From Myxococcota bacterium (GTDB lineage Bacteria; Myxococcota_A; SURF-8), in NCBI GenBank assembly GCA_963674735.2, contig CAXXQS010000002.1, positions 256,001 through 320,000 of the forward strand: a stretch of 64,000 nt of DNA, read 5' to 3'. Positions 48,553-50,005 of the stretch are shown one piece after another (the first letter of the stretch is position 1; every line of letters starts with the position of its first letter). The notes under the pieces were generated by a model. It ran no database searches, was not told the DNA's origin, and saw only the letters and a program-made list of their open reading frames with translations. Made by a program: the position numbers and the translations under genes.

Positions 48553-48771
48553 GCCGAACTCCTTTGGTTTCGCGCCGGACCGGGTCCGACAGGGCGGATT
48601 TGCATACGCCGGTTAAGGGGGCCTGGCTATTAGAAGGGGAAAGACGCCGATTTCTTCCCGGATTTGCGAGGTGCGGTGGGTGGAAAGGAGACAAAACGCG
48701 AGTGGTATACGGCCACACGGTTTGGAGCCCGTCGGAGACGCGCTCCAGATTCGTAGCGACTGTTATCGGTG

Positions 48772-49707
48772 TCAAGCGAAATTCGGGTTCCAGGCTTCGT
48801 TTTTCCGCATCATCGTGTTGAGAATGAGGACCAATTTTCGCATGCAGGCCACCACCGCCGTCATCTTCGGTTTGCCGCGTCCGACCAGCCGCTGGTAGTG
48901 TCCGCGAATCACCGGGTTGTGTTGAATCGCCACCAGCGTCGGCATGTAGAGCGCCGTGCGCAGGCGATGACGACCGCCGCCGGTCATGCGTTTACCCCGA
49001 AACGTTCCGCTGTCCCGATTCATGGGCGCCACGCCGATCAACGCCGCGATCTGCCGCCGGTTGTAGATCCCCAGCTCCGGCAGATCCGTCACCAGAAGAT
49101 TCGCCGTGCACGCGCCGACGCCCGGCATCGTTTGGAGCCGCGCGGCCCGGTCGCTGCGCTCCCGATCCGATGCAATGGCCGCCGCGATGGCCCGATCCAG
49201 CCGCTCGATTTCCCGTTCGATCACCTCCAGAATGCGGTGCAGGCTTTGTCCGATCGTCCGATCGCCCACGTGTTCGGTGCGGTTTTTCTCCATCGTGCGC
49301 ATGGCGACCAGCTGCCGCCTCCGTGAAGACAGGGCTTTTAACAGGAGGGCGGTTTCGCCGAGCGTTTCGTTCGGTGCGGGACGCATGGCGGCTGCGTAGC
49401 GTGCGATGATGCCCGCATCGAGTCGATCCGTTTTCGCCATCACGCCGACGGCGCGGGCATAATCCCGGATGCGCCGGGGATTGACCACCGCCACCGGCCA
49501 ACCCGCTTTCTGAAGACGTTTGCACAGCTCCCGTTCGTAGCCGCCGGTGGCTTCCATCACGACGCCCTCCACCTCGATCCGCTTCAACGAACGGACGAAG
49601 CGTGTCATGCCGGCTTTGGTGTAAGCGTAGCGGACGCACGTGCTTTCGCCGTCGACGGCGACATCGAAAACGGCTTTGCTGACGTCGATCCCGATCCATT
49701 TCTTCAT
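48772..49707 (-). CDS. IS110 DEDD recombinase (bridge recombinase)
   Basis: GIDVSK, MEATG, KTDRLDA (RuvC-like DEDD); GVG; RDSG catalytic-Ser region; G-N-R/GGR region. Confidence 0.96.
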   Translation of the reverse strand: MKKWIGIDVSKAVFDVAVDGESTCVRYAYTKAGMTRFVRSLKRIEVEGVVMEATGGYERELCKRLQKAGWPVAVVNPRRIRDYARAVGVMAKTDRLDAGIIARYAAAMRPAPNETLGETALLLKALSSRRRQLVAMRTMEKNRTEHVGDRTIGQSLHRILEVIEREIERLDRAIAAAIASDRERSDRAARLQTMPGVGACTANLLVTDLPELGIYNRRQIAALIGVAPMNRDSGTFRGKRMTGGGRHRLRTALYMPTLVAIQHNPVIRGHYQRLVGRGKPKMTAVVACMRKLVLILNTMMRKNEAWNPNFA

Positions 49708-49709
49708 GG

Positions 49710-49915
49710 CGCACCCTTCCTTGCCAATACGGGCTCATTTCGATTACAATGGCCCCTGCGACTGTTCGGGTTTTCCCGGACGAAACGGACGGCGGATCCG
49801 GCTACAAAACGGGCTCATCAGGCCCCAGGATGGGACGATCTCGCCGCCCACCACGGCCTCCCGCTTGCTACGGGAGGTCGTTTCATCTTATCATCACAAA
49901 CGATGACAGTCGCTT
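49710..49915 (-). ncRNA. IS110 bridge RNA (left-end non-coding region)
   Basis: Target loop TCCCATCCT...TTTGTAG and donor loop ACAGTCGCA...GGCAAG match the reconstructed target and donor sites; boundaries approximate. Confidence 0.85.
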
Positions 49916-49930
49916 GAAAGGGATAATACA

Positions 49931-50005
49931 AGGATGGGCAACTTGTTGCCCATCTTCTTGAAGCTTTACTTGACGACGCGATGGGCAACAAGTTGCCCAT
50001 CCTAC
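49931..50005. repeat. GTAG-type REP inverted doublet (REPIN-like), one copy split by IS110
   Basis: (GT)AGGATGGGCAACTTGTTGCCCATC at 49931-49954 and inverted GATGGGCAACAAGTTGCCCATCCTAC at 49980-50005. Confidence 0.85.

Follow-up and report, generated by a model that had tools for sequence, protein, structure and literature searches.

The stretch analysed here (hereafter the window) is a 64,000-nucleotide piece of a Myxococcota bacterium genome (assembly GCA_963674735.2, contig CAXXQS010000002.1, positions 256,001 to 320,000 of the forward strand). Its minus strand carries, between positions 48,755 and 49,932, an element that an initial annotation had singled out as a complete IS110 bridge-recombinase system with an RNA readable against a repetitive extragenic palindrome (REP). 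Our analysis indicates that it is very probably an intact insertion sequence of the IS110 group, that is, a bridge-recombinase element with a bridge RNA derived from its left end. This kind of element was already described in 2024, and the one reported here is a new and apparently recently active member. Its outline is given by the following features, numbered according to the window:

48755..49932, minus strand: whole IS110-group element, both CT cores counted (1178 bp; ends shared by eight identical copies)
49931..49932, minus strand: left CT core, read from the sequence and from the comparison of copies
48755..48756, minus strand: right CT core, followed by the AC of the right target at 48754-48753 (CT-AC in all eight copies)
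48772..49707, minus strand: recombinase gene (311 aa), the sole long open frame within the element
48764..48766, minus strand: ATA half of a short subterminal inverted repeat flanking the donor, read from the sequence

The element measures 1176 bp plus one CT. Read on the minus strand, the left junction is TGCCCATC-CT-TGTATTATCCC, with the CT at 49932-49931, and the right junction runs from TTGACA (48775-48770) through ccgataACAGTCG and CT (48756-48755) into ACGAA. These junction strings, together with the four loop strings of the initial annotation, were all found on the minus strand where it had placed them. The left end, at 225 nt, is much longer than the right end, which has 17 nt, and long terminal inverted repeats are absent, as is typical of the IS110 group. 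The TAT half of the subterminal repeat lies at 49925-49923, within a putative -10 box (TATTAT), and such an ATA/TAT repeat around the donor is documented in IS110-group elements (PMC11208160, Extended Data Fig. 10 legend).

The protein encoded by the element has the domain order of the IS110 family, with an N-terminal DEDD RuvC-like domain (Pfam DEDD_Tnp_IS110, PF01548; residues 5-146, 79.5 bits against a cut-off of 29, E 3e-22) and a C-terminal Tnp domain (Pfam Transposase_20, PF02371; residues 189-272, 68.2 bits against a cut-off of 21.3, E 8e-19). When all chains of the PDB were searched, only two matched, namely the transposases of ISCro4 (E 3e-37) and IS621 (E 1e-34). Residues D8, E52, D94, D97 and S233-G234 align to D11, E60, D102, D105 and S241-G242 of IS621, the residues named as its active site in PMC11208158, whose numbering is used here (the PDB chain of IS621 is numbered with a two-residue offset). 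The five catalytic residues did not vary in an alignment of 26 relatives. The closest protein among approximately 5.8 billion was 64% identical, and 7905 of the 8000 candidates scored in the protein search reached E <= 1e-30, so that we regard this as a new element within a very large family.

The host assembly (5.26 Mb in 3 contigs) contains eight copies of the element, which are 100% identical across all 1178 bases and all have open frames. In every copy, the left flank reads GATGGGCAACAAGTTGCCCATC-CT (ending in GTTGCCCATC-CT) and the right flank CT-AC, a pattern of site-specific insertion. The base after the right CT-AC is G in the window copy and T in the other seven. Two palindromic units are involved in the insertion site:

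49933..49954, unstranded: 22-nt perfect REP-like palindrome able to form a 9-pair hairpin, found to the left of all eight copies; its 3' arm gives the left target CCCATC
49980..50001, unstranded: second, inverted palindrome unit with a TT centre, which forms a REP pair with the first (read from the sequence)

The genome holds 20 perfect 22-nt palindrome units, while the 16-nt palindrome core occurs at 31 sites (the self-complementary pattern was counted 62 times, every site twice). Sixteen TTGCCCATCCTAC sites are empty and eight are occupied. Since all eight copies share the left flank and CT-AC, the reproducible target, situated at the 3' foot of a REP-like hairpin, is CCCATC-CT-AC. The initial annotation had proposed inspecting the other genomic copies, and these turned out to have identical ends and one common target, not divergent or unrelated ones. 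A second identical copy lies on the same strand approximately 16 kb away, about 1.9 kb past the end of the window (contig C2:321888-323065), and two direct copies so near each other could mediate a deletion or mobilise the segment between them. Within the window, the element occupies an intergenic REP pair past a terminator-like hairpin (50075-50046), and no gene is disrupted. The neighbouring genes, all on the minus strand, encode an Oxidored_FMN protein of the old yellow enzyme type (47479-48552), an ornithine/aspartate carbamoyltransferase (50100-51035) and a member of the amino-acid-kinase family (51087-52058).

The left end most probably encodes a bridge RNA of approximately 165-205 nt, composed of a 5' hairpin and two internal loops, a prediction that stands together with the reading of the element as a whole. 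The predicted parts of this RNA, including the left and right target guides (LTG, RTG), the left and right donor guides (LDG, RDG) and the handshake guides of the target-binding loop (TBL) and the donor-binding loop (DBL), are located as follows, where MFE denotes minimum free energy:

49857..49877, minus strand: predicted 5' stem-loop (MFE folds; the relatives have a GC-rich, sequence-variable hairpin there)
49786..49850, minus strand: predicted TBL module with basal stem, LTG, inner stem-loop and RTG (MFE folds and RNAalifold)
49827..49835, minus strand: LTG, UCCCAUCCU, also written CCCAUCCU and given in the initial annotation as TCCCATCCT; its last 8 nt equal the left target and core, CCCATC-CT
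49802..49805, minus strand: RTG, GUAG, the reverse complement of CT-AC, with a possible extension to 49808
49800..49801, minus strand: candidate TBL handshake-guide positions, CC, with donor position 7 (G) as a possible partner of the first C
49714..49770, minus strand: predicted DBL module with basal stem CCC/GGG, LDG, inner stem-loop and RDG (RNAalifold, pair counts and MFE folds)
49757..49765, minus strand: LDG, ACAGUCGC, given in the initial annotation as ACAGTCGCA; equal to the right-end terminus plus the C of the core, then A49757
49720..49728, minus strand: RDG, AUUGGCAAG, discontiguous, read against the left-end start CT-TGTAT
49718..49719, minus strand: candidate DBL handshake-guide positions, GA, with the C and T of target positions 7 and 6 as possible partners

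In the MFE folds, a GC-rich hairpin comes first; UCCCAUCCU and UUUUGUAG then face each other across an internal loop, with a short hairpin between them, and ACAGUCGCA and GUAUUGGCAAGG do so across a second loop. For comparison, one genome per species was scanned and 80 of 168 related stretches were kept, from which 27 distinct left ends, belonging to proteins of 45-62% identity, were aligned. The RNAalifold consensus of these 27 relatives recovered both basal stems and both inner hairpins, so that the proposed position of the guides in internal loops was borne out both by folds of the single sequence and by the comparison. A 27-pair structure was then written from the alignment itself and counted, and 92.4% of its cells were paired over the 27 relatives. 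Changes on both sides were seen in 18 of the 27 pairs, with compensatory changes in 11 of 15 pairs in helices 1 and 2 (target loop) and in 7 of 12 pairs in helices 3 and 4 (donor loop). None of 500 shuffles reached any of five pairing measures. Related sequences may beat shuffles without any structure, and such an artefact of relatedness is argued against by the slid controls, in which only 33-46% of cells were paired, and by the variety of pair types, one pair being represented by CG in nine, GC in eight and UA in eight relatives. A Shine-Dalgarno-like stretch, AAGGAAGGG (49722-49714), overlaps the RDG and the basal stem of the donor loop.

When the 27 left ends were used to build a covariance model, it gave a full-length match just upstream of the recombinase open reading frame, on the same strand, in 59 of 67 sources, including alphaproteobacterial elements. 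Among the eight sources with no such match, five (L057, L059, L070, L086 and L097) match nothing of the recombinase before residue 29, three of them lying at a contig end, and the remaining three (L093, L096 and L098) are the most distant sources, with 33-36% identity. Within the window, the model matched positions 49710-49852 on the minus strand (131 bits) and gave one further, weak antisense match. The model also matched positions 542-675 of an E. coli plasmid locus (L099; NZ_CP123239.1, IncF) with an E-value of 2.5e-11, at the left end of an annotated IS110 transposase; according to the PDB comparison, the protein of this plasmid element is as distant from IS621 as our query.

Regarding the target loop, the LTG matches the flank at 8 of 9 positions and the RTG at 4 of 4 in all eight copies. 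For the comparison across relatives, guide columns were taken from the alignment, and element ends were located by the CTTGT(A/G)T start and the LDG-like terminus. Over 25 elements, the mean number of agreeing positions, out of 7, between the non-core LTG and the left flank was 5.8 for an element's own flank and 3.76 for non-cognate flanks, and none of 10,000 permutations reached the observed total. The RTG likewise followed its own right flank in 23 elements, the observed match being reached in 0 of 10,000 permutations. Positions 5-8 of the LTG matched in all 25 relatives and position 1 in only 7, so that the eight matches out of nine counted in the initial annotation represent the usual state of the clade. 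Positions 3-4 of the right target matched in 22 of 23 elements and positions 5-7 in 8 to 14 of them. Examples of changed guides include L048, with the LTG TTGACACCT and GTCAG against CT-GAC, L051, with TTAAAG against CT-TTAA, and L065, with CGCGTAG against CT-ACGCG. The string TTTGTAG, proposed as a guide pairing CTACGAA with one G:U, does lie at 49808-49802 on the minus strand, and its GUAG part was retained; the extension applies to the window copy alone, and since the other seven copies carry T after CT-AC, the reproducible right-target guide is 4 nt long.

These comparisons bear on the idea that the agreement between loops and flanks consists of chance similarities picked by eye. The matches are indeed short (8, 4, 8 and 4+1+2 nt), and each guide has one or two unpaired positions. 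Against this, the same relation is present in another 25 or 26 elements whose targets differ, permutation never reaches it, and the guides sit in internal loops supported by covariation. Because the ends and the site are identical in eight of eight copies, the guides track the flanks and the stems covary, we take the guides to be beyond chance and give almost no credence to coincidence.

A further possibility is that the element is a genuine IS110 member in which recognition of the REP hairpin by the protein mainly chooses the site, the loop-flank matches being secondary or incidental. The left target is situated within the 3' arm of a perfect palindrome in all eight copies, which fits this view. 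So does the clade: in 16 of 24 elements, the left target forms the 3' arm of a perfect hairpin, 6 bp or longer, whose end lies within 8 nt of the CT core, compared with 1 of 20 right flanks that have such a hairpin, and insertion at the foot of palindromes seems to be general in the clade as a whole. In addition, the stem-loop at the target of ISPpu10 has been reported as an added determinant of specificity (bioRxiv 10.64898/2026.03.19.712850). However, the guides change with the flanks across relatives to an extent never reached by permutation, and changes of the right flank that lie outside any hairpin are tracked as well (L048, L051 and L065). Moreover, the RNA of IS621 is described as both necessary and reprogrammable (PMC11208160), and the hairpin of ISPpu10 is described as an addition to base pairing, not as its replacement. 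We consider it very unlikely that the protein and the hairpin mainly determine the site.

The evidence for the donor loop is of a different nature. The LDG matches at 8 of 8 positions, and in the RDG, the possible pairs are CAAG-CTTG, G-T and AU-AT, the middle UG being looped out. The donor guide GGCAAG (49725-49720), which had been paired with CTTG, is present but forms part of the longer, discontiguous AUUGGCAAG (49728-49720). Similarly, the eight matches counted over nine LDG positions stood, but the final A of ACAGTCGCA is no mismatch specific to this element, as the LDG of IS621 also consists of 8 nt followed by A (PMC11208158). Two relatives carry donor variants that are visible independently in the print-out of their flanks: L062 has ACAGCCGC and L065 has ACAGTTGC in both the LDG and the right end (RE). 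The donor is otherwise nearly invariant across the clade, and the covariation evidence for this loop is thin. The suggestion that the element has its own target and donor specificity holds for the target; the donor comes close to one common to the clade, ACAGTCG-CT-TGTAT being found in most relatives. The handshake pair at position 7 is Watson-Crick in 26 of 26 elements for the TBL and 25 of 25 for the DBL, and all four columns are invariant.

Putative regulatory elements were identified at both ends, and their arrangement suggests a promoter that would be complete only in the circular form:

49923..49928, minus strand: putative -10 box, TATTAT (read from the sequence; TAnnnT at the same place in relatives)
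48770..48775, minus strand: putative -35 box, TTGACA, at 17 bp from the -10 box only after circularisation
49906..49916, minus strand: 11-nt leader motif, CAAGCGACTGT, which reads exactly as the RE terminus, the core and the first 2 nt of the left end (LE) in reverse complement

At the sequence level, TTGACA-17-TATTAT would form across the RE-LE junction. A script detected a TTGAYN hexamer 15 nt from the element end, giving a 17-bp spacer, in 21 of 25 elements, and L019 and L036 also keep this geometry by reading (TTGACT). The IS621 promoter is described as losing its -35 box when RE-LE is truncated (PMC11208160). The stop codon of the recombinase gene (TGA, 48774-48772) sits within the -35 hexamer. 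In the integrated state, only a weak, REP-derived promoter is present (TGGGCA-18-TATTAT, 9/12), which fits the weak expression of IS621 RNA reported from genomic copies (PMC13626964). The 8-nt core of the leader motif, GCGACTGT (49913-49906), is complementary to the LDG and paired with it in the MFE fold of the whole left end. The leader motif may conceivably be a circle-specific regulatory device, although we hold this to be improbable. As DNA, it would give rise to an 11-bp inverted repeat on either side of the -10 box, and this only after circularisation. As RNA, the 8-nt core would base-pair with the LDG and hide the donor loop until the recombinase binds or the RNA is processed. The motif is only weakly conserved: of 26 elements, 2 have an exact match and 7 agree at 7 or more of 8 positions. 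A leader of this self-masking kind was not met in passages of the IS621 literature, no search having been aimed at it.

Several results weigh against a functional bridge RNA in this element. The 171-nt core folds no better than shuffled sequences (z -0.54; 52 of 200 shuffles fold equally well), so that the support for the structure is comparative and not thermodynamic; the 225-nt left end gave z -3.47, but this fold includes the leader-LDG pairing, which would occlude the LDG. A scan of positions 48300-50400 against Rfam 15 (E up to 10) returned no bridge-RNA family and only weak chance matches, none reaching E 0.01, the best (E 0.017) being an unrelated miRNA family on the REP pair. A blastn search of the RNA region against E. 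coli genomes gave no match, and the likeness of the RNA to that of IS621 is one of layout, as read from papers. Agreement between the LDG and positions 1-7 of the left donor is circular, because the LDG string had been used to locate the right end, which leaves L062 and L065 as the only independent cases. The handshake pairs, being invariant, show consistency and not covariation, and the RTG bases past GUAG are unmatched in seven of the eight copies. Finally, the public sequencing runs in which the element was found amount to three contig sets from one study, with no RNA run among them; the 14-mer of the circle junction had no match in the assembly; and neither an RE-LE joint nor a clean empty-site joint was found in the three Logan contig sets. 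The one joint listed, from 48747 to 49978, has other letters between its two sides and thus reflects other REP contexts. In these public contigs (X1-X3; window 48753-49954), the element forms a separate 1202-nt contig at approximately 79-91x, with flanks at approximately 9-13x, which is the behaviour of a collapsed multi-copy repeat and does not represent a copy number.

Such results would also be compatible with copies that were recently amplified and are now inactive or independent of RNA, the left-end structure being a relic or serving only the control of recombinase translation. The assembly, the public runs and the contigs yielded no evidence of RNA or circles, the Shine-Dalgarno-like stretch shares bases with the RDG and the DBL stem, and the integrated state has only its weak promoter (9/12), all of which this explanation would accommodate. 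It accords poorly with eight copies that are identical over 1178 bp with open frames, with intact catalytic residues, and with compensatory changes and guide-flank covariation, which speak for selection acting on the RNA; for IS621, too, expression from integrated copies is reported to be weak (PMC13626964). We therefore regard an inactive or RNA-independent family as highly improbable and retain the reading of an intact bridge-recombinase element.

The proposed mechanism sets the observed anatomy, copy number, site specificity, conservation and covariation of the RNA structure, and covariation of guides with flanks beside the production of the RNA, the chemistry of strand exchange, activity and programmability, which we infer from IS621 and ISCro4. 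The target loop (LTG CCCAUCCU, RTG GUAG) would read CCCATC-CT-AC at the 3' foot of the REP-like palindrome of the host, while the donor loop (LDG ACAGUCGC, RDG AUUGGCAAG) would read the joined ends of the circularised element. Guided by this RNA, the 311-aa DEDD/Ser recombinase would swap strands at the CT core and insert the circle, and the reverse reaction would excise the element. Circularisation would join the -35 box of the right end to the -10 box of the left end, thereby switching on the RNA. By analogy, the protein can fairly be regarded as a candidate programmable recombinase.

When compared to IS621 from E. coli (PMC11208160, PMC11208158), our element has the same domain order, catalytic residues, CT core and combination of a long left end with a short right end. 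The target of IS621 is also of the REP type, and its RNA has the same order of a 5' hairpin, the target loop and the donor loop. The initial annotation had proposed an IS621-type architecture, and every sequence-level feature of it that could be tested here was found, including the layout of the left-end RNA, the CT core and the REP-like target. For IS621, an LTG of 9 nt and an RTG of 4 nt are described, together with an LDG of 8 nt, after which comes an A linker pairing back to the region of the RDG (PMC11208158). In the RDG of IS621, two bases and a further four are paired, with a G-T pair and two bases looped out between them (PMC11208158), nine RNA bases pairing discontiguously with seven donor bases (PMC11208160), and two-base handshake guides that pair with position 7 of the other DNA follow the RTG and the RDG (PMC11208158). 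Both elements are alike in how long the LTG and RTG are, in the LDG plus A, in the nine-on-seven RDG with its G-T pair, in the putative handshake positions, in the promoter rebuilt across the RE-LE junction and in the ATA/TAT subterminal repeat. In contrast, the protein match to IS621, with E 1e-34, extends over residues 4-300, with 311 aa here and 326 aa in IS621; the target is different (CCCATC-CT-AC), in this clade position 1 of the LTG mostly stays unpaired, with a match in 7 of 25, and the host is an environmental Myxococcota-like genome, judging by named relatives of the same family. The best match among solved structures, the bridge recombinase of ISCro4 (PDB 9t56; E 3e-37, residues 4-300), is likewise a distant relative in sequence.

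Regarding the hairpin at the target, insertions of ISPpu10 in Pseudomonas putida are reported to lie all in identical copies of one intergenic repeat, with a stem-loop 5' of the paired target (bioRxiv 10.64898/2026.03.19.712850). Likewise, all eight copies reported here adjoin the 22-nt palindrome and 16 of 24 relatives adjoin a hairpin. The closest company of our element is a clade of 311-aa IS110 proteins from metagenome-assembled genomes of Myxococcota, Zixibacteria, Desulfobacterales and Planctomycetota (loci L019-L069). These share 45-62% protein identity, elements of 1155-1199 bp, the same or nearly the same donor and the same RNA layout, while every member has its own LTG, RTG and target, and none is closer than 64% in protein identity.

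Thousands of such orthologues and RNAs were predicted in 2024 (PMC11208160), and this clade or this element may already be among them. The element leaves the knowledge of IS110 elements unchanged and adds one more editing candidate to those predicted. Its value lies in being a clearly readable natural pair of bridge recombinase and RNA, compact (1176 bp, 311 aa) and from an environmental lineage, in a single genome that supplies eight occupied and sixteen empty natural targets. Since the members of the clade differ mainly in the target loop, they form a tidy natural data set for the rules of guide recognition, namely the unpaired position 1 of the LTG, the 4-nt RTG and the hairpin beside the target.

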